Source: a virus
Lineage: Duplodnaviria; Heunggongvirae; Uroviricota; Caudoviricetes
Reading direction: 5' to 3' (one strand)
IMG/VR virus record: IMGVR_UViG_3300045988_076720
Location: 1 to 15,928 of that record
DNA length: 15,928 nucleotides
The notes under the pieces were generated by a model. That model made no database searches and had not been told where the DNA came from. It was given only the letters and a program-made list of their open reading frames with translations. Within the stretch, counting starts at the first letter, position 1. Every line of letters starts with the position of its first letter. Position numbers and translations under genes: made by a program. This document shows positions 4,425-13,971 of the stretch, one piece after another.

Positions 4425-5333
4425 ATGCCGATTATCGACCTGAACCAGCTACCTGCACCGGATGTGGTCGAGGAGCTGGACTTTGAAACCATTCTCGCTG
4501 AACGCAAGGCGACACTGATTTCCCTTTACCCGGAAGACCAGCAGGAGGCGGTTGCCCGTACCCTGACGCTGGAATCCGAGCCTCTCGTCAAACTGCTGGA
4601 GGAAAATGCTTATCGTGAGCTTATCTGGCGTCAGCGTGTGAATGAGGCCGCACGGGCGGTAATGCTGGCCTGTGCCGCCGGTAATGACCTTGATGTGATT
4701 GGTGCCAATTACAACACCACGCGCCTGACTATCACCCCGGCAGATGATTCGGCCATCCCGCCGACACCGGCAGTGATGGAATCTGATACTGATTATCGTC
4801 TGCGTATTCAGCAGGCGTTTGAAGGTTTAAGCGTTGCCGGGTCGGTGGGTGCTTATCAGTATCATGGTCGCAGTGCCGACGGGCGTGTCGCGGATATCTC
4901 TGTCACCAGTCCGTCTCCTGCCTGCGTCACCATCTCTGTGCTGTCCCGTGAAAATAACGGCGTCGCATCCGAAGACCTGCTGGCCGTGGTGCGTAACGCC
5001 CTTAATGGCGAGGACGTCAGGCCGGTGGCCGACCGCGTGACCGTGCAGTCTGCCGCCATCGTTGAATACCAGATAAACGCCACGCTTTACCTTTACCCTG
5101 GTCCCGAAAGCGAACCCATCCGCGCTGCTGCCGTGAAAAAACTGGAAGCGTACATCACGGCACAGCACCGGCTGGGGCGCGACATCCGTCTGTCTGCCAT
5201 TTATGCCGCTTTGCATGTGGAAGGCGTGCAGCGTGTCGAGCTGGCCGCACCACTGGCCGACATCGTGCTCAACAATACGCAGGCGTCTTTCTGTACTGAA
5301 TACAGCGTCGTGACGGGAGGCTCGGATGAGTGA
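4425..5333 (+). CDS. J: baseplate assembly protein J
   Basis: 302-aa ORF MPIIDLNQLPAPDVVEELDFETILAERKATLISLYPEDQQ... matching P2 gpJ. Confidence 0.9.
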   Translation: MPIIDLNQLPAPDVVEELDFETILAERKATLISLYPEDQQEAVARTLTLESEPLVKLLEENAYRELIWRQRVNEAARAVMLACAAGNDLDVIGANYNTTRLTITPADDSAIPPTPAVMESDTDYRLRIQQAFEGLSVAGSVGAYQYHGRSADGRVADISVTSPSPACVTISVLSRENNGVASEDLLAVVRNALNGEDVRPVADRVTVQSAAIVEYQINATLYLYPGPESEPIRAAAVKKLEAYITAQHRLGRDIRLSAIYAALHVEGVQRVELAAPLADIVLNNTQASFCTEYSVVTGGSDE

Positions 5334-5937
5334 TTCGCGACTGCTGCCAACCGGCTCATCACCGCTTGAAGTTGCCGCCGCAAAAGCCTGTGCGGAAATT
5401 GAAAAAACACCGGTCAGTATTCGTGAGCTGTGGAACCCGGACACCTGCCCGGCAAATCTGCTGCCGTGGCTGGCGTGGTCATTTTCGGTTGACCGCTGGG
5501 ATGATAAGTGGCCGGAAGCGACAAAACGCGCTGTTATCCGCGATGCGTATTTCATTCACTGCCATAAGGGCACTATAGGCGCAATCCGGCGTGTGGTGGA
5601 GCCGCTCGGCTATCTGATTGAGGTGAGGGAGTGGTGGCAACTCAACGAGGAGCCGGGGACGTTCCGCATCGTTGTTGGCGTGCTTGAGCAGGGTATTACC
5701 GAGGAAATGTATCAGGAGCTGGAGCGCCTCGTTGCTGATGCAAAACCGGCAAGCCGCCATCTGACGGGACTGGCTATCAGTTTAAGTACAACCGGCAACA
5801 TTTTTGCCGGTGCGGGATGCTATCACGGTGACGCCCTGACGGTTTATCCCTACACCCCGGAGGCCATTATTGTCGGAGGGGATTATTTCCCGGCCTCGGC
5901 CATTCATTTAATTGATAACCTGAGAGTAAACGCATGA
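5326..5937 (+). CDS. I: baseplate / tail protein I
   Basis: 203-aa ORF MSDSRLLPTGSSPLEVAAAKACAEIEK... matching P2 gpI; overlaps J and H ends. Confidence 0.88.
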   Translation: MSDSRLLPTGSSPLEVAAAKACAEIEKTPVSIRELWNPDTCPANLLPWLAWSFSVDRWDDKWPEATKRAVIRDAYFIHCHKGTIGAIRRVVEPLGYLIEVREWWQLNEEPGTFRIVVGVLEQGITEEMYQELERLVADAKPASRHLTGLAISLSTTGNIFAGAGCYHGDALTVYPYTPEAIIVGGDYFPASAIHLIDNLRVNA

Positions 5938-7256
5938 CAGTGAAATACTACGCCATTCTGACTAATCAGGGCGCAGCACGGCTGGCTAACGCGACGATGC
6001 TCGGCAGTAAGCTGAATCTGACGCAAATGGCCGTTGGTGATGCGAATGGTGTCTTGCCGACACCAGACCCGGCACAGACAAAACTGATTAACCAGAAACG
6101 CATCGCGCCGCTGAATCTTCTGAGTGTTGACCCGAACAACCAGAGCCAGATTATTGCGGAGCAAATCATCCCTGAGAACGAGGGCGGATTCTGGATCCGT
6201 GAGATTGGGCTTTATGATGATGAAGGCGTACTCATTGCGGTGGCGAACTGCCCGGAAACGTACAAACCGCAGTTGCAGGAAGGCAGTGGTCGTACCCAGA
6301 CTATCCGCATGATTCTGGTTGTCACGAATACCGAAGCTATTACGCTGAAAATCGACCCGTCGGTGGTACTGGCGACCCGTAAATATGTGGATGATGAAGT
6401 CCTGGAATTAAGGCTGTATGTGGATGACCAGATGAGCAAACACATTGCAGCACAGGACCCTCATACCCAGTATGCACAGAAACATAATCCGACATTTACC
6501 GGAGAACCAAAAGCGCCGACGCCTGCCGCAGGAAATAACACCACGCGGATTGCGACCACTGCGTTTGTACAGGCCGCTATTACCGCTCTGATTAACGGTG
6601 CGCCTGACACGCTGGACACACTGAAAGAAATTGCCGCGGCCATTAACAATGACCCGAAATTCAGCACCACCATTAACAATGCGCTGGCAGGTAAACAACC
6701 GCTGGACAATACGCTGACTCATTTGAGTGGAAAGGATGTTGCCGGTCTTCTCGCATACCTTGGTTTGGGAGAAGGCTCAGCGTTACCCGTTGGTGTGCCT
6801 GTTCCGTGGCCTTCAGCCACACCACCAACAGGCTGGCTGAAATGCAACGGTGCACCTTTTTCTGCCGAAGAGTACCCCAAACTGGCAAAGGCTTACCCAA
6901 AGTTAAAATTACCGGATTTGCGCGGTGAGTTTATTCGCGGGTGGGATGATGGGCGAGGTGTTGATTCCGCGAGACTGCTACTTTCAAGTCAGGCGGCATC
7001 TATCCTTGAACATAACCATGAAATGCATGGATGGACAGGGAACCCACTCATGGCTAGAGATGTTTATTCATCCGGTTCATCCGTATTTGCGGTGCAGTTG
7101 AGCATTGGCGATGGCGGGTTATTGTATTCGTGGAAGGATGGGAGTGGAACAACAAATGACAGTAAACGAATGGATAGAACAAATCATGTCAGTTCCGGCG
7201 CCGGTGATGGTAGCCCGCGAAACATTGCATTTAACTACATTGTGAGGGCTGCATAA
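5934..7256 (+). CDS. H: tail fiber protein H: constant N-terminal ~276 codons (5934-6761) fused to the currently expressed variable receptor-binding cassette (6762-7256)
   Basis: 440-aa ORF after gpI; C-terminal part has a tail-collar-type motif (PVGVPVPWPS...GWLKCNGA...LPDLRGEFIRGWDDGRGVD); constant/variable junction ...LLAYLGLGE lies on the 26-bp crossover site at 6748-6773. Confidence 0.88.
   Translation: MTVKYYAILTNQGAARLANATMLGSKLNLTQMAVGDANGVLPTPDPAQTKLINQKRIAPLNLLSVDPNNQSQIIAEQIIPENEGGFWIREIGLYDDEGVLIAVANCPETYKPQLQEGSGRTQTIRMILVVTNTEAITLKIDPSVVLATRKYVDDEVLELRLYVDDQMSKHIAAQDPHTQYAQKHNPTFTGEPKAPTPAAGNNTTRIATTAFVQAAITALINGAPDTLDTLKEIAAAINNDPKFSTTINNALAGKQPLDNTLTHLSGKDVAGLLAYLGLGEGSALPVGVPVPWPSATPPTGWLKCNGAPFSAEEYPKLAKAYPKLKLPDLRGEFIRGWDDGRGVDSARLLLSSQAASILEHNHEMHGWTGNPLMARDVYSSGSSVFAVQLSIGDGGLLYSWKDGSGTTNDSKRMDRTNHVSSGAGDGSPRNIAFNYIVRAA
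6748..6773. repeat. hix/gix-like 26-bp inversion crossover site, left (inside H coding sequence)
   Basis: TTCTCGCATACC-TT-GGTTTGGGAGAA: two imperfect 12-bp half-sites around a 2-bp core, resembling Hin/Gin sites as I recall them; 15 bp (TTGGTTTGGGAGAAG) are identical in inverted orientation to 8592-8606. Confidence 0.7.
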
Positions 7257-7859
7257 ATGGAACAGGCTATTTTGGGAAAAGACGGTTACGCTTTAAATGA
7301 TGGGGAAATCATCGTACATAACTATGATGGCGAAACGCGGGAATATATTTCTACATCAACTGAATATCTTGCGGTTGGCGTCGGTATCCCGGCATGTTCC
7401 TGTCTGGATGCACCAGGTACACATAAAGCTGGTTATGCAATCTGTCGCTCTGTAGATTTAAATTCATGGGAATATGTGCCAGACCATCGCGGTGAAGTTG
7501 TCTATAGTACCGAAACGGGAGATACCAAAGAAATCACAGTTCCGGGTGATTACCCTGAAAATACAACCACTATCGCCCCATTAACGCCATACGATGAATG
7601 GGATGGTGAGAAATGGGTGACGGATACCGAGGCACAGCATAGCGCCGCAGTAGGCGCGGCAGAAGCACAGCGTCAGTCACTGATTGATACTGCAATGGCT
7701 TCCATTAGTCTGATTCAACTGAAATTACAGGCCGGGCGGAAGCTGATGCAGACAGAAAACACCCGACTTAACGCTGTGCTGAATTACATTGACGCGGTGA
7801 CGGCAACAGATACCAGCACCGCGCCGGATGTCATCTGGCCTGAACTGCCGGAGGAGTAG
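7257..7859 (+). CDS. G: tail fiber assembly protein (chaperone), paired with the currently expressed fiber C-terminus
   Basis: 200-aa ORF immediately after the H stop (TAAATG); C-terminal motif ...DTSTAPDVIWPELPEE shared with the convergent alternative assembly gene. Confidence 0.85.
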   Translation: MEQAILGKDGYALNDGEIIVHNYDGETREYISTSTEYLAVGVGIPACSCLDAPGTHKAGYAICRSVDLNSWEYVPDHRGEVVYSTETGDTKEITVPGDYPENTTTIAPLTPYDEWDGEKWVTDTEAQHSAAVGAAEAQRQSLIDTAMASISLIQLKLQAGRKLMQTENTRLNAVLNYIDAVTATDTSTAPDVIWPELPEE

Positions 7860-8274
7860 GCCATTCAATATCTGGCGCACTGGAAGTATCGACCAGCTCC
7901 AGTGCGTCCAGATAATCCAGCCACAAATTATATTGCGCCAGTTCCTCACCTTTCAGACGACCAATAGCCGCTTTACCAACCCATTGTCTACTGTTCATAT
8001 AATCGTTGGCCTGATTAATCAATTGCTGCTTTTTAGTTTCGGCTGATGCAATTTGTTCTTCACGTGTTGGTGGAGGAATATCTGCCCATGCAGGCAGTCC
8101 ATCTTCTCCAACACATCTGTATTTTCCTTCTGGTGGTGTGTCATAGAAATATTCCCTGAAAATTACTTCGTCTATATCAACACCTTTTTCTTCAGGCCAT
8201 TCACCTTTTTCAACATAAAGAGACTGAAGTTCGTAAGGATATGCCAGGTTGTTTACGTACAGATATTTCATCAT
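7831..8274 (-). CDS. alternative tail fiber assembly protein (G'/U'-like), silent partner inside the invertible segment
   Basis: 147-aa - strand [32 protein letters not shown]... with C-terminus ...LVDTSSAPDIEWPTPPAVQAR homologous to the gpG C-terminus; start overlaps the stop of the upstream - strand fiber cassette (TAATG); 3' end overlaps G convergently by 29 bp. Confidence 0.82.
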   Translation of the reverse strand: MMKYLYVNNLAYPYELQSLYVEKGEWPEEKGVDIDEVIFREYFYDTPPEGKYRCVGEDGLPAWADIPPPTREEQIASAETKKQQLINQANDYMNSRQWVGKAAIGRLKGEELAQYNLWLDYLDALELVDTSSAPDIEWPTPPAVQAR

Positions 8275-8648
8275 TACCAGCCCTTAGCGAAAAACGCACC
8301 ACCTTCAAGACCATAATTGCAGTGAGCTATGAAGCCGGTAGTGCTCCAGTTGGTCGCCCCCCACATATTCCCGCCCCCGAAACCACCATCGCACACAATT
8401 ACAATGCCCGGTGTCTGTGTAAATGGAATCGGGAATGAAACATTGGCGGATACAGGCCCGTGTTCACCAGGAAAACTAATTCGTCCCCACTGTTCAATTG
8501 AACCATCTGGCATTTTTCGCCAGCCTGAACCTGATGCATATGATGACATATCAGGTATCTGATTTTCCCCTGTTCCCACATTCCGTTTTGCCGCTTCTCC
8601 CAAACCAACGTTTATGAAAATGCAGAGATAACGGGCAACTGGCATCAT
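8274..8648 (-). CDS. alternative tail-fiber C-terminal cassette (Hv'/Sv'-like); functional part is 8274-8606, expressed only as an H fusion after inversion
   Basis: - strand ORF whose segment after the crossover ([35 protein letters not shown]...) is Gly-rich fiber-tip-like; it contains the same GLGE codons (ggt ttg gga gaa) as H at the crossover, in frame. The ATG at 8648 lies outside the segment and is probably not a real start. Confidence 0.7.
8595..8620. repeat. hix/gix-like 26-bp inversion crossover site, right (inverted relative to 6748-6773)
   Basis: TTCTCCCAAACC-AA-CGTTTATGAAAA; its reverse complement shares the 15-bp block TTGGTTTGGGAGAAG with the H site; lies ~55 bp upstream of the invertase start. 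Confidence 0.7.
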
Positions 8649-8675
8649 CTCCGGTTTTTATTCAGGGGGATGCTC

Positions 8676-9269
8676 ATGCTTATTGGCTATGTACGCGTGT
8701 CAACAAATGACCAGAACACGGAATTGCAGCGTAATGCGCTGGAGTGTGCAGGATGTGAGCTGATTTTTGAGGATAAAATCAGCGGCACGAAGTCTGACCG
8801 ACCGGGACTGAAAAAACTGCTCAGAACATTATCAGCAGGTGACACTCTGGTAGTCTGGAAGCTGGACAGGCTGGGGCGTAGTATGCGGCATCTGGTCATT
8901 CTGGTTGAGGAACTGCGCGAACGCGGCGTTAATTTTCGCAGCCTGACAGATGCTATTGATACCAGCACGCCGATGGGGCGTTTTTTCTTTCATGTGATGG
9001 GTGCCCTGGCTGAAATGGAACGAGAACTCATTGTCGAGCGGACACGCGCCGGACTGGAAGCGGCCAGAGCTAAAGGTCGTATTGGTGGCAGACGTCCGAA
9101 GCTCACCGCGAGTGAGTGGGAACAGGCAGGACGGTTGCTGGCTGCGGGTGAATCACGTCAACGCGTGGCGCTGATTTTTGATATTGGCCTGTCCACGCTC
9201 TATAAAAAATTCCCCTCATCAGCGACAAAGAATAAATTGTGTCATCCCTTAGCCAACCGGGACAAATAG
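8676..9269 (+). CDS. serine DNA invertase (Gin/Hin/Cin/Pin family site-specific recombinase)
   Basis: N-terminus MLIGYVRVSTNDQNTELQRNAL... with catalytic-Ser motif, VVWKLDRLGRS, GRFFFHVMGALAEMERELIVERT and a C-terminal HTH (GRIGGRRPKLT...LSTLYKK) are hallmark invertase sequences. ORF track starts at 8670 (MLMLIGY...); the ATG at 8676 has better spacing from the GGGGG Shine-Dalgarno-like run. Confidence 0.93.
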   Translation: MLIGYVRVSTNDQNTELQRNALECAGCELIFEDKISGTKSDRPGLKKLLRTLSAGDTLVVWKLDRLGRSMRHLVILVEELRERGVNFRSLTDAIDTSTPMGRFFFHVMGALAEMERELIVERTRAGLEAARAKGRIGGRRPKLTASEWEQAGRLLAAGESRQRVALIFDIGLSTLYKKFPSSATKNKLCHPLANRDK

Positions 9270-9328
9270 CCTGACATCTCCGGCACAACTGAAAATATCA
9301 CTCACCCATTAACCACGGAGTTAAACGG

Positions 9329-10519
9329 ATGAGTGACTATCATCACGGCGTGCAGGTGCTGGAGATTAACGACGGCACCCGCGTCATTTCCACCGTATCC
9401 ACTGCCATTGTCGGCATGGTCTGCACGGCCAGCGATGCGGATGCGGAAACCTTCCCCCTCAATAAACCGGTGCTGATTACCAATGTGCAGAGCGCAATTG
9501 CAAAGGCCGGTAAAAAAGGCACGCTGGCGGCATCGTTGCAGGCTATCGCTGACCAGTCAAAACCGGTCACCGTTGTTGTGCGTGTGGAAGACGGCACCGG
9601 CGACGACGAGGAAACGAAACTTGCGCAGACCGTTTCCAATATCATCGGCACCACCGACGAAAACGGTCAGTACACCGGACTGAAAGCCCTGCTGGCGGCA
9701 GAGTCGGTAACCGGTGTTAAACCGCGTATTCTCGGTGTGCCGGGACTGGACACCAAAGAGGTGGCTGTTGCACTGGCATCCGTCTGTCAGAAGCTGCGCG
9801 CTTTCGGGTATATCAGCGCATGGGGCTGTAAAACCATTTCCGAGGTGAAAGCCTACCGCCAGAATTTCAGCCAGCGTGAGCTTATGGTCATCTGGCCGGA
9901 TTTCCTCGCATGGGATACGGTCGCCAGTACCACCGCCACCGCGTATGCCTCCGCCCGTGCGCTGGGTCTGCGCGCTAAAATCGACCAGGAGCAGGGCTGG
10001 CATAAAACGCTGTCCAACGTCGGGGTGAACGGTGTTACCGGCATCAGCGCGTCCGTATTCTGGGATTTGCAGGAGTCCGGCACCGATGCTGACCTGCTTA
10101 ACGAGTCAGGCGTCACAACGCTGATTCGCCGTGACGGTTTCCGCTTCTGGGGTAACCGTACCTGCTCTGATGACCCGCTGTTCCTCTTTGAAAACTACAC
10201 CCGCACCGCGCAGGTGCTGGCCGACACGATGGCTGAGGCGCACATGTGGGCGGTGGACAAGCCCATCACCGCAACGCTGATTCGCGACATCGTTGACGGC
10301 ATCAATGCCAAATTCCGTGAGTTGAAAACAAACGGCTATATCGTGGATGCGACCTGCTGGTTCAGCGAAGAATCCAACGATGCGGAAACCCTCAAGGCCG
10401 GAAAACTGTATATCGACTACGACTATACACCGGTACCTCCTCTTGAAAACCTGACCCTGCGCCAGCGTATTACCGATAAATACCTGGCAAATCTGGTCAC
10501 CTCGGTTAACAGCAATTAA
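9329..10519 (+). CDS. FI: contractile tail sheath protein
   Basis: 396-aa ORF MSDYHHGVQVLEINDGTRVISTVSTAIVGMV... matching P2 FI in sequence and length. Confidence 0.92.
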   Translation: MSDYHHGVQVLEINDGTRVISTVSTAIVGMVCTASDADAETFPLNKPVLITNVQSAIAKAGKKGTLAASLQAIADQSKPVTVVVRVEDGTGDDEETKLAQTVSNIIGTTDENGQYTGLKALLAAESVTGVKPRILGVPGLDTKEVAVALASVCQKLRAFGYISAWGCKTISEVKAYRQNFSQRELMVIWPDFLAWDTVASTTATAYASARALGLRAKIDQEQGWHKTLSNVGVNGVTGISASVFWDLQESGTDADLLNESGVTTLIRRDGFRFWGNRTCSDDPLFLFENYTRTAQVLADTMAEAHMWAVDKPITATLIRDIVDGINAKFRELKTNGYIVDATCWFSEESNDAETLKAGKLYIDYDYTPVPPLENLTLRQRITDKYLANLVTSVNSN

Positions 10520-10531
10520 GGAGCCTGACCG

Positions 10532-11047
10532 ATGGCAATGCCGCGCAAACTCAAGTTAATGAACGTCTTTCTGAACGGCTACAGCTATCAGGGCGTCGCG
10601 AAGTCCGTCACGCTACCAAAACTGACCCGTAAGCTCGAAAACTATCGCGGTGCGGGGATGAACGGCAGCGCACCGGTAGACCTCGGCCTTGATGACGATG
10701 CGCTGTCAATGGAGTGGTCGCTCGGTGGCTTCCCGGATTCGGTTATCTGGGAGCTTTACGCCGCAACCGGTGTGGATGCCGTACCGATTCGTTTTGCAGG
10801 TTCTTACCAGCGCGACGATACCGGCGAAACGGTGGCCGTCGAGGTGGTCATGCGTGGACGTCAGAAAGAAATCGACACCGGCGAGGGCAAACAGGGAGAA
10901 GACACCGAGTCGAAAATCTCCGTGGTCTGCACCTATTTCCGGCTGACGATGGACGGTAAGGAGCTGGTCGAAATCGACATCAACATGATTGAGAAGGTGA
11001 ACGGCGTCGACCGGCTGGAGCAACACCGCCGCAATATCGGCCTGTGA
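10532..11047 (+). CDS. FII: tail tube protein
   Basis: 171-aa ORF MAMPRKLKLMNVFLNGYSYQGVAKSVTLPKL... matching P2 FII; GGAG RBS upstream. Confidence 0.92.
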   Translation: MAMPRKLKLMNVFLNGYSYQGVAKSVTLPKLTRKLENYRGAGMNGSAPVDLGLDDDALSMEWSLGGFPDSVIWELYAATGVDAVPIRFAGSYQRDDTGETVAVEVVMRGRQKEIDTGEGKQGEDTESKISVVCTYFRLTMDGKELVEIDINMIEKVNGVDRLEQHRRNIGL

Positions 11048-11379: not shown

Positions 11380-11531
11380 CGTTTCCGAAAAATCTGTCGG
11401 TCGATGACCTGATGGCGGATGTGGCAGTGATATTTCACTGGCCGCCATCAGAACTGTATCCCATGAGCCTGACCGAACTCATCACATGGCGCGAAAAGGC
11501 GCTCCGGCGAAGCGGAAACACGAATGAGTAA
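11104..11531 (+). CDS. E+E': tail assembly chaperone E+E' produced by programmed -1 ribosomal frameshift at 11352-11358
   Basis: Slippery heptamer T-TTT-TTG in the E frame; the -1 frame is open from 11358 to TAA at 11529-11531 (checked codon by codon), giving 85 + 57 = 142 aa; overlaps the T start, as in P2. Confidence 0.8.
11352..11358 (+). other. -1 programmed frameshift slippery site (TTTTTTG)
   Basis: X-XXY-YYZ heptamer in the zero frame of E (codons TTT TTG at 11353-11358). Confidence 0.8.
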
Positions 11532-12252
11532 CAATGTAAAATTACAGGTATTGCTCAGGGCTGTTGACCAGGCATCCCGTCCGTTTAAATCCATCCGCAC
11601 AGCGAGCAAATCGCTGTCGGGGGATATCCGGGAAACACAAAAATCACTGCGCGAGCTGAACGGTCAGGCATCCCGTATTGAGGGATTTCGCAAGACCAGT
11701 GCACAGCTCGCCGTGACTGGTCATGCACTTGAAAAGGCACGGCAGGAGGCCGAAGCCCTTGCCACACAGTTTAAAAACACCGAACGTCCGACCCGTGCTC
11801 AGGCGAAAGTGCTGGAATCCGCAAAGCGTGCGGCGGAGGACTTACAGGCGAAATATAACCGCCTGACGGATTCCGTTAAACGCCAGCAGCGGGAACTGGC
11901 CGCTGTGGGAATTAATACCCGCAATCTTGCACATGATGAGCAGGGACTGAAAAACCGTATCAGTGAAACCACTGCACAGCTTAACCGTCAGCGTGACGCG
12001 CTGGCGCGTGTCAGTGCGCAACAGGCAAAACTTAACGCAGTAAAACAGCGTTATCAGGCAGGCAAGGAACTGGCCGGAAATATGGCCTCAGTGGGCGCTG
12101 CCGGTGTGGGGATTGCGGCGGCGGGAACGATGGCCGGAGTTAAGTTGCTGATGCCCGGTTATGAGTTTGCGCAGAAAAACTCAGAATTGCAGGCTGTGCT
12201 CGGAGTGGCAAAAGACTCCGCCGAAATGACCGCACTACGCAAACAGGCGTGA
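11524..12252 (+). CDS. T: tail tape measure protein T, N-terminal portion ending at an in-frame TGA
   Basis: 242-aa ORF MSNNVKLQVLLRAVDQASRPFKSIRTAS..., coiled-coil-like and Ala/Gln/Arg-rich; same frame as the 12370-13971 ORF. Confidence 0.85.
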   Translation: MSNNVKLQVLLRAVDQASRPFKSIRTASKSLSGDIRETQKSLRELNGQASRIEGFRKTSAQLAVTGHALEKARQEAEALATQFKNTERPTRAQAKVLESAKRAAEDLQAKYNRLTDSVKRQQRELAAVGINTRNLAHDEQGLKNRISETTAQLNRQRDALARVSAQQAKLNAVKQRYQAGKELAGNMASVGAAGVGIAAAGTMAGVKLLMPGYEFAQKNSELQAVLGVAKDSAEMTALRKQA

Positions 12253-12369
12253 CAGCTCGGGGCCAATACCGCCGCTTCGGCGGATGATGCGGCCGGTGCA
12301 CAGATAATCATCGCGAAAGCGGGTGGGGATGTTGATGCCATTCAGGCGGCAACGCCGGTCACGCTGAAT

Positions 12370-13971
12370 ATGGCGCTGGCGAACCGCCGCACGATGGAAG
12401 AAAACGCCGCCCTGCTGATGGGGATGAAATCCGCCTTTCAGCTTTCAAACGATAAGGTCGCTCATATCGGGGATGTTCTCTCCATGACGATGAACAAAAC
12501 CGCCGCCGATTTTGACGGCATGAGCGATGCCTTGACCTATGCCGCACCTGTGGCAAAAAATGCCGGTGTCAGCATTGAAGAAACCGCCGCAATGGTCGGG
12601 GCGCTGCATGATGCAAAAATCACAGGCTCAATGGCGGGGACGGGAAGCCGTGCCGTGTTAAGCCGCCTGCAGGCACCGACGGGAAAAGCATGGGATGCAC
12701 TCAAAGAGCTTGGAGTGAAAACCTCAGACAGCAAGGGAAACACCCGGCCAATATTTACCATTCTGAAAGAAATGCAGGCCAGTTTTGAGAAAAACCGGCT
12801 CGGTACTGCCCAGCAGGCTGAATACATGAAAACCATTTTCGGGGAGGAGGCCAGCTCAGCCGCCGCTGTGCTGATGACTGCCGCCTCAACCGGAAAGCTG
12901 GACAAACTGACCGCTGCGTTTAAAGCCTCAGACGGGAAGACCGCAGAGCTGGTAAATATCATGCAGGACAACCTCGGTGGTGACTTTAAGGAGTTTCAGT
13001 CCGCTTATGAGGCGGTGGGGACTGACCTGTTTGACCAGCAGGAAGGCGCACTGCGTAATCTCACGCAGACGGCCACAAAGTATGTGTTAAAACTCGACGG
13101 CTGGATCCAGAAAAACAAATCACTGGCGTCAACCATCGGCATCATTGTCGGTGGTGCACTGGCACTGACTGGTGTCATCGGTGCCATTGGCCTCGTAGCC
13201 TGGCCGGTTATCACCGGCATTAATGCCATCATCGCGGCAGCAGGCGCAATGGGTGCAATCTTCACGACGGTTGGCAGTGCTGTTATAACCGCCATCGGGG
13301 CGATTAGCTGGCCGGTTGTGGCCGTGGTGGCCGCCATTGTCGCCGGGGCGTTGCTTATCCGTAAATACTGGGAGCCTGTCAGCGCATTCTTTGGCGGTGT
13401 GGTGGAAGGGCTGAAAGCGGCATTTGCGCCGGTGGGGGAACTGTTCACGCCACTTAAACCGGTGTTTGACTGGCTGGGTGAAAAGTTACAGGCCGCGTGG
13501 CAGTGGTTTAAAAACCTGATTGCCCCGGTCAAAGCCACCCAGGACACCCTGAACCGTTGCCGTGACACGGGGGTCATGTTCGGGCAGGCACTGGCTGACG
13601 CGCTGATGCTGCCGCTTAATGCGTTCAACAAACTGCGCAGTGGTATTGACTGGGTACTGGAAAAACTCGGTGTTATCAACAAAGAGTCAGACACACTTGA
13701 CCAGACCGCCGCAAGGACTCATGCCGCCACGTATGGCACCGGTGGTTATATTCCGGCGACCAGCTCTTATGCAGGCTATCAGGCTTATCAGCCGGTTACG
13801 GCACCGGCTGGCCGCTCTTATGTGGACCAGAGTAAAAACGAATATCACATCAGTCTGACGGGCGGTACTGCGCCGGGGACTCAGCTCGACCGCCAGTTAC
13901 AGGATGCGCTCGAAAAATACGAGCGGGATAAACGTGCGCGCGCCCGTGCCAGCATGATGCATGACGGTTAA
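12370..13971 (+). CDS. T: tail tape measure protein T, C-terminal portion (first ATG after the internal stop; frame is open from 12253)
   Basis: 533-aa ORF with Gly/Ala-rich hydrophobic repeats (IGIIVGGALALTGVIGAIGLVAWPVITGINAIIAAAGAMGAI...) typical of tape measure proteins; same frame as 11524-12252. Confidence 0.85.
   Translation: MALANRRTMEENAALLMGMKSAFQLSNDKVAHIGDVLSMTMNKTAADFDGMSDALTYAAPVAKNAGVSIEETAAMVGALHDAKITGSMAGTGSRAVLSRLQAPTGKAWDALKELGVKTSDSKGNTRPIFTILKEMQASFEKNRLGTAQQAEYMKTIFGEEASSAAAVLMTAASTGKLDKLTAAFKASDGKTAELVNIMQDNLGGDFKEFQSAYEAVGTDLFDQQEGALRNLTQTATKYVLKLDGWIQKNKSLASTIGIIVGGALALTGVIGAIGLVAWPVITGINAIIAAAGAMGAIFTTVGSAVITAIGAISWPVVAVVAAIVAGALLIRKYWEPVSAFFGGVVEGLKAAFAPVGELFTPLKPVFDWLGEKLQAAWQWFKNLIAPVKATQDTLNRCRDTGVMFGQALADALMLPLNAFNKLRSGIDWVLEKLGVINKESDTLDQTAARTHAATYGTGGYIPATSSYAGYQAYQPVTAPAGRSYVDQSKNEYHISLTGGTAPGTQLDRQLQDALEKYERDKRARARASMMHDG

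Follow-up and report, generated by a model that had tools for sequence, protein, structure and literature searches.

Sequence features of a Gin/Pin-type invertase module in the late region of a P2-like prophage

The interval 8649-9328 of the DNA analysed here (the window, a stretch of 15,928 nucleotides) very probably comprises the recombinase gene and the control sequences of a tail-fibre switch of the Mu-G/e14-P type, carried by a P2-like prophage. An intact invertase gene, two inverted crossover sites, an enhancer within the invertase coding sequence and two alternative fibre cassettes can be recognised, and a closely related prophage carries the segment in the opposite orientation. The arrangement is already known: it is annotated in deposited phage genomes and has been published, and inversion in P2-like prophages of EPEC was detected by sequencing (Goldberg et al., 2014, PMC4272514). 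The details that we add, namely the joint at the pF activator site, the missing terminator, the extended -10 element and the wobble constraint at the Fis cores, are refinements rather than surprises; they leave current understanding unchanged and have little significance beyond correct annotation.

Gene order, invertase and invertible segment

The ORF map together with Pfam assignments identified the window as late-region DNA from a P2-like (Peduovirus) prophage. The genes follow the order V-W-J-I-H-G-(slot)-FI-FII-E-T-U-D and are accompanied by an Ogr-activated pF promoter, the combination by which a P2-like late region is recognised. The DNA was 97% identical to that of P2 from 9249, within pF, through gene D, and H showed homology to P2 in short stretches only. 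The H tip and its assembly gene were ~91% identical to HK97 stf/tfa, and this similarity began at the left crossover site (Table 1). An Rfam search of the window gave no match. The initial annotation had placed an alternative fibre cassette, an alternative assembly gene and an invertase in the slot between G and FI, and all three were found; the invertase stop codon (9267-9269) is separated from the start of FI by a spacer of exactly 59 bp.

Table 1. Coordinates of the features discussed in the text (positions in the window).
Feature	Position	Strand	Details
Gene I	5326-5937		
H, tail fibre gene, present orientation	5934-7256	+	440 aa; Pfam Phage_tail_fib N-terminal domain and Collar
H, constant part	5934-6760	+	
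Left crossover site	6748-6773		TTCTCGCATACC-TT-GGTTTGGGAGAA; inside H (codons ...AYLGLGE)
H, variable tip	6761-7256	+	
Predicted invertible segment	6761-8607		1847 bp; two convergent sets of fibre tip and assembly gene
G-like tail fibre assembly gene, for the currently expressed tip	7257-7859	+	200 aa; Pfam Caudo_TAP, E 1.5e-29
Alternative tail fibre assembly gene, silent in present orientation	7831-8274	-	147 aa; Pfam Caudo_TAP, E 3e-33
Alternative fibre C-terminal cassette, promoterless	8274-8648	-	Pfam Gp53-like_C
Right crossover site	8595-8620		TTCTCCCAAACC-AA-CGTTTATGAAAA; alignable with gixR of Mu and with the e14 site
Candidate extended -10 element of the invertase	8641-8649	+	TGGCATCAT; from conservation
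Gin/Pin-family serine DNA invertase	8676-9269	+	197 aa; Pfam Resolvase and HTH_7
Recombinational enhancer homologue	8694-8765		CDS nt 19-90, within the invertase gene
Fis-like core I	8698-8712		TGTCAACAAATGACC
Fis-like core II	8746-8760		GTGCAGGATGTGAGC
Late promoter pF, P2 backbone	9237-9328	+	ungapped alignment with P2 activator and start sites
FI, tail sheath gene, first of the F operon, then FII	9329-10519	+	Pfam sheath domains

The open reading frame of the invertase spans 8670-9269 on the plus strand and matched the Pfam families Resolvase (E 3e-52) and HTH_7 (E 1e-12). Translation likely starts at the ATG at 8676 rather than at 8670, giving a protein of 197 aa instead of 199 aa, because the resulting N-terminus, MLIGYVRVS..., matches those of Gin, Cin and Pin as well as the RefSeq start in the related prophage of E. 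coli EA2. A Shine-Dalgarno sequence (GGGGG, 8665-8669) lies ~6 nt 5' of this ATG but directly adjoins the one at 8670. The protein was 82% identical to Mu Gin (PDB 3uj3/4m6f) over 182 residues (E 3e-94) and 88% identical to e14-type Pin, and its HTH_7 region aligned with Hin's DNA-binding domain (1hcr). The catalytic serine, whose absence on alignment had been put forward as a sign of an inactive ORF, is present as Ser9, aligned with Ser9 of Gin. Across 58 homologues, residues S9, R42, D64, R65 and R68 were invariant and R7 was found in 98%; the window protein has them all. Its C-terminal ~16 aa form a non-conserved tail, and the protein conforms to the family in its length, for which ~185-195 aa is the expectation, and in carrying HTH_7. 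Residue 114 is the wild-type Met, and is Val in the crystallised Gin proteins, which we take to be a Fis-independent mutant.

Enhancer-dependent invertases can also be told apart by the residues that contact Fis or the enhancer. In Hin, those distinguishing Fis/enhancer-dependent enzymes are K47, K/R48, K/R51, Q151, R154 and L155 (McLean et al., 2013, PMC3798978). The window invertase has K46, K47, R50, Q150, R153 and L154 at the equivalent positions, with the one-residue offset taken from the 1hcr alignment. With a catalytic domain, a DNA-binding domain, paired sites, an enhancer and the contact residues all found at the sequence level, the protein belongs to the Gin/Hin/Cin/Pin group, and as judged from its sequence it is an intact Gin/Pin-type enzyme.

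The longest inverted repeat between 5900 and 9400 pairs 6748-6774 with 8594-8620, and from its sequence and position this pair is identified as the two 26-bp crossover sites. Their central dinucleotides, TT and AA, are complementary, as needed for sites in inverted orientation, and their 13-bp inner arms match exactly. The centre of the right site lies 68 bp 5' of the invertase ATG, in agreement with the earlier expectation that it would be close to the start of the gene. Only 8274-8607 of the alternative fibre cassette falls within the invertible DNA, the initial 14 codons of this ORF lying across and beyond the right crossover site.

When 6761-8607 was inverted in silico, H codons 1-279 were joined in frame, after ...LGLGE, to the alternative cassette, giving an H' of 386 aa; the 147-aa alternative tfa then followed directly 3' of H' with overlapping stop and start codons. 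Over 320 nt, E. coli EA2 matched the predicted inverted junction with 100% identity. The prophage of this strain and the window are 96.5-98.9% identical, and in EA2 the stretch corresponding to 6760-8611 lies on the opposite strand as a gapless alignment of 98.9% identity, with breakpoints exactly at the two predicted sites. Both orientations therefore occur among close relatives, and the difference between EA2 and the window is the footprint expected of site-specific inversion, seen here by comparing the sequences of two strains.

In the mechanism that we propose, invertase dimers would bind the inverted sites at 6748-6773 and 8595-8620, and two Fis dimers seated on the enhancer in the first 90 coding nucleotides would join them in an invertasome, which would flip the 1.85-kb segment. 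A flip would exchange the Collar-type tip and its 200-aa tfa for the gp53-like tip and its 147-aa tfa; since the C-terminus of H and its chaperone would thus be swapped together, progeny phage with two receptor specificities would be expected. The module would in this way set which of two receptor-binding tips the phage displays. A weak extended -10 promoter beside the right site would drive the invertase, and bound invertase could occlude its own promoter.

The tape-measure gene T of the window carries a private in-frame TGA (12250-12252) at a codon that encodes Arg in 70 relatives, so this prophage may be unable to produce phage and its switch may be without phenotypic effect. This private nonsense codon would be in keeping with a frozen relic, intact in sequence and non-functional in a defective prophage, its invertase either silent or retained for a role at the level of the host. 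So would the decay seen for this module in relatives, where the invertase of NC_041848 is frameshifted and the contig L101, described below, bears a deletion scar. We consider a frozen relic unlikely: the invertase ORF, the two sites, both enhancer cores and the two cassettes have all remained intact and in frame, close relatives show both orientations, and a single nonsense codon in T leaves the chemistry of inversion unaffected. By analogy with PinQ and PinR, there is a remote possibility that a host-level role has preserved an intact invertase beside a defective tape-measure gene; such a role has reportedly been proposed of late for these two cryptic-prophage invertases.

Putative recombinational enhancer and invertase promoter

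The GenBank record of P1 annotates the enhancer of Cin-mediated inversion at nucleotides 19-90 of cin. The 5' part of the window gene, where the initial annotation had anticipated paired Fis sites, does contain two Fis-like sequence cores, both within the first 90 nt. Their centres are 48 bp apart, and each fits Y at -4, A at -3, T at +3, R at +4 and C at +7. A Fis consensus and a rule of 48-bp spacing are known from work on Hin and Gin; our literature search returned nothing usable on 48-bp Fis spacing or on the gin/cin promoter. Among 41 plus-strand matches to this degenerate pattern in the window, cores I and II were the sole pair at this spacing. An earlier register of the core, GTGTCAACAAATGAC (G-N13-C), fitted the consensus poorly, gave a spacing of 49 bp and was dropped; with core I moved by one base, Y-4, A-3, T+3, G+4, C+7 and the 48-bp spacing were obtained.

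Conservation at synonymous positions was then used as a measure of constraint on the DNA itself. To gin, cin and pinE we added 80 invertase loci taken from GTDB genomes and reduced the collection to 30 non-redundant enterobacterial genes; codon identity was scored in pairs sharing the amino acid, minus the expectation from codon usage. Excess synonymous conservation in these 30 genes formed two peaks, nt 13-48 and 61-96, separated by a trough, and fell to about zero past nt 110; each peak contains one of the two Fis-like cores, and codons 7-30 lay above the remainder of the catalytic domain (Mann-Whitney p = 0.002). A set of 58 genes that included GC-rich beta-proteobacterial invertases had diluted the signal, which was revealed by the restriction to the 30 enterobacterial genes and the normalisation for codon usage. 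The -3 and +3 positions of the cores coincide with codon third bases and were nearly invariant in the 30 genes: Asn11 was encoded by AAT in 26, Ala25 by GCA in 25 and Cys27 by TGT in 27, and Ser9 by TCA in 29, since the final base of this codon supplies the -3 A of core I.

Core I is centred ~97 bp from the right crossover point. The Hin enhancer spans 65 bp, with a Fis site at each end, and lies about 100 bp from a crossover site (PMC3798978); the two systems thus agree in the distance from enhancer to site and also in enhancer span. Taken together, these observations support the presence of a Fis enhancer within the invertase gene, and would predict that Fis binds there and that inversion depends on Fis. 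The element would be a clean textbook case of a coding sequence constrained by an overlapping DNA element, with the codon of the catalytic serine fixed as TCA.

A simple sigma-70 scan found no convincing promoter between the right site and the invertase ATG. Alignment of 26 invertase upstream regions, in contrast to the scan, brought out one conserved element, which reads TGGCATCAT in the window and in e14 and TGGCATGAT in Mu, with variants such as TGCCATTAT and TGTAAAAAT at other invertase loci. The pattern TGnNAnnnT occurred at -33 to -45 in 14 of the 26 regions; shuffled sequences gave 4.1 +/- 1.8 and, in 500 shuffles, never more than 11. The scan had missed this extended -10 because the element is without a -35. 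We also considered a terminator-like hairpin at 8637-8656 as a conserved insulator, and rejected it: its fold was no better than that of shuffled sequences (z = -0.48), and by eye the loop motif, not the stems, was conserved across homologues, so that the stretch was re-read as the extended -10. A weak extended -10 promoter adjoining the right site, just outside the invertible DNA, thus probably drives the invertase, its position being suggested by the pattern of conservation. With the right site at about -37 to -62, occlusion of the promoter by bound invertase is plausible, and site occupancy could in this way provide autoregulation.

It had been suggested that the proximity of the right site to the gene could couple inversion to invertase expression. 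For this, the invertase promoter would have to lie partly within the invertible DNA, such that flipping alters invertase synthesis. The right site is indeed just 68 bp from the ATG, and a sigma-70-like sequence, TCGCCA-16-TATGAT (8517-8544), lies inside the segment facing the invertase. Such matches, however, were at the level expected from shuffled sequence (3 observed and 2.0 expected), and the element conserved in Mu, e14 and 12 other loci is that at 8641-8649, which falls 34-42 bp beyond the crossover point on its right side and hence outside the invertible DNA. Inversion, in addition, leaves the 13 bp left of the crossover point unchanged, so that the context of the promoter would be orientation-independent to about -62. 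Finally, P1 cin reads towards its site, so coupling is not a feature of the family. Orientation-coupled expression therefore appears highly improbable, and the suggestion found no support; with an extended -10 outside the invertible DNA, invertase expression should be independent of orientation.

The G-FI slot and the joint with pF

The P2 genome (NC_001895) has fun(Z) in the interval from G to FI, on the minus strand, with the activator site and the transcription start of pF annotated just 5' of FI. The invertase module of the window therefore occupies the Z/fun slot, as the initial annotation had proposed. A Z/fun homologue elsewhere in the window would have argued against a replacement; a tblastn search of the window with P2 Fun(Z) returned a best E of 2.6, that is, no homologue.

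We compared 63 IMG/VR P2-like contigs with enough upstream DNA and with FI 86-99% identical (mostly 98-99%) to that of the window. The gap from G to FI ranged from 131 to 4407 bp across these contigs. No fun(Z) was found in any of the 63, and the slot is empty in some relatives. The gap cargo that was sampled included a type I-B retron (RT and ATPase-Toprim), PARIS AriA/AriB, PD-T7-1 and a DpdB-like protein. An invertase lay directly 5' of FI in nine contigs, eight of which (97-99% identical) had the same 59-bp spacing. The ninth, L155, is divergent (invertase 79%, FI 88%); its invertase is placed slightly further from FI, and the 3' end of the gene crosses the pF activator-site region. In L101, which is without an invertase, tfa runs straight into a remnant of that gene, its final ~160 nt, marking this contig as a deletion derivative. 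PADLOC defence models gave no match to the window invertase at E <= 1e-5; since the hotspot is here filled by a host-range switch and not by a defence gene, such lysogens would carry no hotspot defence gene at this site. In P2-like phages, the Z/fun hotspot has been described as mixed-purpose, with a DNA invertase often present together with inversion of adjacent genes (Egorov et al., bioRxiv 10.1101/2024.10.15.618418). Rousset (2022) and a 2026 NAR paper on P2 hotspots make no mention of invertases. Among complete E. coli genomes, about 681 of 5,426 covered 8560-9340 at >=80%, and the presence of an inversion module explains the frequent assembly breaks and differences at this locus.

The right end of the module could be placed precisely. 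Homology to P2 is lost inside gene I (window position 5762) and regained at 9237-9249, and an ungapped alignment placed the beginning of the P2 backbone at TTGTG (9237), which forms the left half of the activator site annotated for pF. The Ogr-type half-sites TGT (9238-9240) and CCA (9253-9255) are retained, TGT-N12-CCA being common to the window, P2 and a second common pF allele, and the equivalent of the P2 transcription start is at 9303-9305. On the invertase side, homology to pinE and gin stops at ...LYKKFP (~9217), followed by unique sequence at 9218-9236; the stop codon native to the invertase has therefore been lost. The ORF runs for ~16 extra codons and stops seven bases past the activator site annotated in P2. 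Because the joint is at the activator site, the ORF ends within the promoter, and pF overlaps its final 11 codons.

A GC-rich hairpin followed by a T-run lies just 5' of pF in cargo-bearing and empty loci and is absent from invertase loci, leaving nothing terminator-like between invertase and FI. With no terminator and an ORF that ends in pF, constitutive transcription of the invertase in the lysogen could enter the F (sheath/tube) operon. If the fusion were functional, late activation of pF could interfere with invertase expression and tie fibre switching to the lysogenic phase; that the fusion is functional rather than accidental seems to us very doubtful.

The DNA replaced relative to P2 extends from the interior of gene I to the pF activator site, and therefore the whole fibre module has been replaced. 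This bears on the proposal that the slot records a modular swap at a recombination-prone junction: the junction is a cargo hotspot in the 63 contigs, as proposed, but the event was not a simple exchange of Z/fun for an invertase. The right joint is identical in all nine invertase-bearing IMG/VR relatives and NC_041848, which also have a single pF allele, and this common joint points to one old event followed by spread. Together with L155 and L101, the shared joint makes the module look, from these sequences, like an old resident that is sometimes lost, and a recent one-for-one replacement of Z/fun is not favoured.

The swap may even have run in reverse, with the fibre module as the old resident and Z/fun, retrons, PARIS and the like, or the empty slots, arising by later replacement or deletion. 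The joint and pF allele common to all these relatives would fit such a history, as would the position of the invertase in the more divergent L155, which also ends just 5' of FI across the activator-site region, and the ~160 nt of invertase kept in L101. Against it, we searched the spacer between G and fun(Z) of P2 for relics of the invertible segment or the invertase and found none, with no remnant of an invertase or an inverted cassette at the protein level; and the terminator 5' of pF, present in cargo-bearing relatives and missing at invertase loci, fits either direction. We therefore regard a reversed swap as possible, if on the unlikely side.

Comparison with known inversion systems

Among known systems, the hin gene of Salmonella offers a contrast in layout. 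Hin and the window invertase both belong to the Fis-enhancer-dependent subfamily, with conserved contact residues, but hin lies inside its own invertible segment and switches a promoter, whereas the predicted switch of the window is in coding sequence. P1 Cin is likewise homologous to the window invertase, and the enhancer in cin matches that at 8694-8765. The cin gene, however, flanks its segment on the opposite side and is oriented towards cixL, which consequently overlaps the 3' end of cin; in the window the site is 5' of the gene. P2 itself shares with the window module the slot and its right boundary, the pF activator site, but its slot holds fun(Z) on the minus strand with terminators and no invertible DNA.

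Among annotated P2-like phages, NC_041848/KC618326, pro483, S164, 500465-2 and Salmonella MET_P1_103_31 have the same order, with a 'DNA invertase' between inverted fibre genes and FI. They differ from the window in their cassette sets (coverage 52-83%), and the invertase of NC_041848 is frameshifted, whereas that of the window is intact.

The closest correspondence in design is with the Gin/G segment of Mu and the Pin/P segment of e14. These have the same layout as the window: a constant 5' part of the fibre gene, a site, a tip with its chaperone, an inverted second chaperone and tip, and a second site. In all three the invertase reads away from the segment, the distance from site to ATG is 67-68 bp and the enhancer cores fall at the same codons. 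The window differs in its P2-like backbone, as against Mu or lambdoid backbones for the Gin and Pin systems, in a segment of 1.85 kb compared with about 3 kb for Mu G, in its Collar-type and gp53-like tips, and in an invertase ORF that, unlike Mu gin and e14 pin, has no stop codon of its own and ends in the pF promoter of P2.

Invertase active-site codon and the pF region

Of 30 enterobacterial invertase genes, 29 use TCA for the catalytic serine (Ser9), whose codon lies at 8700-8702 of the window. The third base of this codon (8702) doubles as the -3 A of the first predicted Fis core of the recombinational enhancer, and the overlapping enhancer therefore constrains the active-site codon.

Downstream, we compared the pF region, taken as the 160 nt upstream of FI, in the window (9169-9328) and in the P2-like loci L086-L165. 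At least two diverged alleles of this region were found alongside near-identical FI genes. A hairpin followed by a T-run (GGCGGGC...GCCCGCCTTTTCTTT) lies just upstream of the pF activator site in the loci that have no invertase, and is absent from the invertase loci.

The module and the G-FI slot in relatives

The same module is present in L001 (NC_041848; region 4529-5177), a sequence from O157:H43 T22 deposited as 'Escherichia phage P2'. The invertase of L001 has a frameshift near codon 129, through which the HTH domain is lost; the segment is therefore probably locked in one orientation. In the P2-like contig L101 (region 5081-6010), the gap between G and FI is 282 bp, and the last ~160 nt of an invertase gene directly abut tfa (the counterpart is window 9109-9328), a deletion scar of the module. 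The cargo of this slot across L105, L120, L142 and L088 included a type I-B retron (RT and ATPase-Toprim), PARIS AriA/AriB, PD-T7-1 and a DpdB-like gene. A 675-aa protein of L152 had no match in PADLOC.

Tape-measure gene T and FII of the window

In the tape-measure gene T, codon 243 (12250-12252) reads TGA in frame; P2 and 70 relatives encode Arg at this position (CGC 64, CGT 5, CGA 1). The prophage in the window may therefore be defective, or the TGA may be a sequencing error. The FII protein has 171 residues versus 172 in P2, one Thr being absent, in frame, at about 10975-10985 (...VEIDINMIEK in the window, ...VEIDTINMIEK in P2).

Positions of the T and FII genes in the window
Gene	Coordinates
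Tape-measure gene T	11524-13971
FII	10532-11047

Crossover sites and fibre mosaicism

In many draft genomes (L007, L009, L010, L011, L013, L016, L017, L019, L022, L025 and other GTDB invertase loci), the contig terminates at the crossover site, which leaves 70-200 bp of sequence ahead of the invertase ATG. These ends are consistent with assembly breakage at a segment that exists in both orientations within the sequenced culture.

The H tip and tfa in the current orientation (window 6754-7911) are ~91% identical to stf/tfa of the lambdoid phages HK97 and HK106, and this homology begins at the left crossover site, a classic case of tail-fibre mosaicism. A gix-like sequence (TTTCCTGTAAACCGAGATATTCGATA) was also observed within H of P2 (about 1859-1884 of locus L002, minus strand), although P2 carries neither an invertase nor an inverted cassette.
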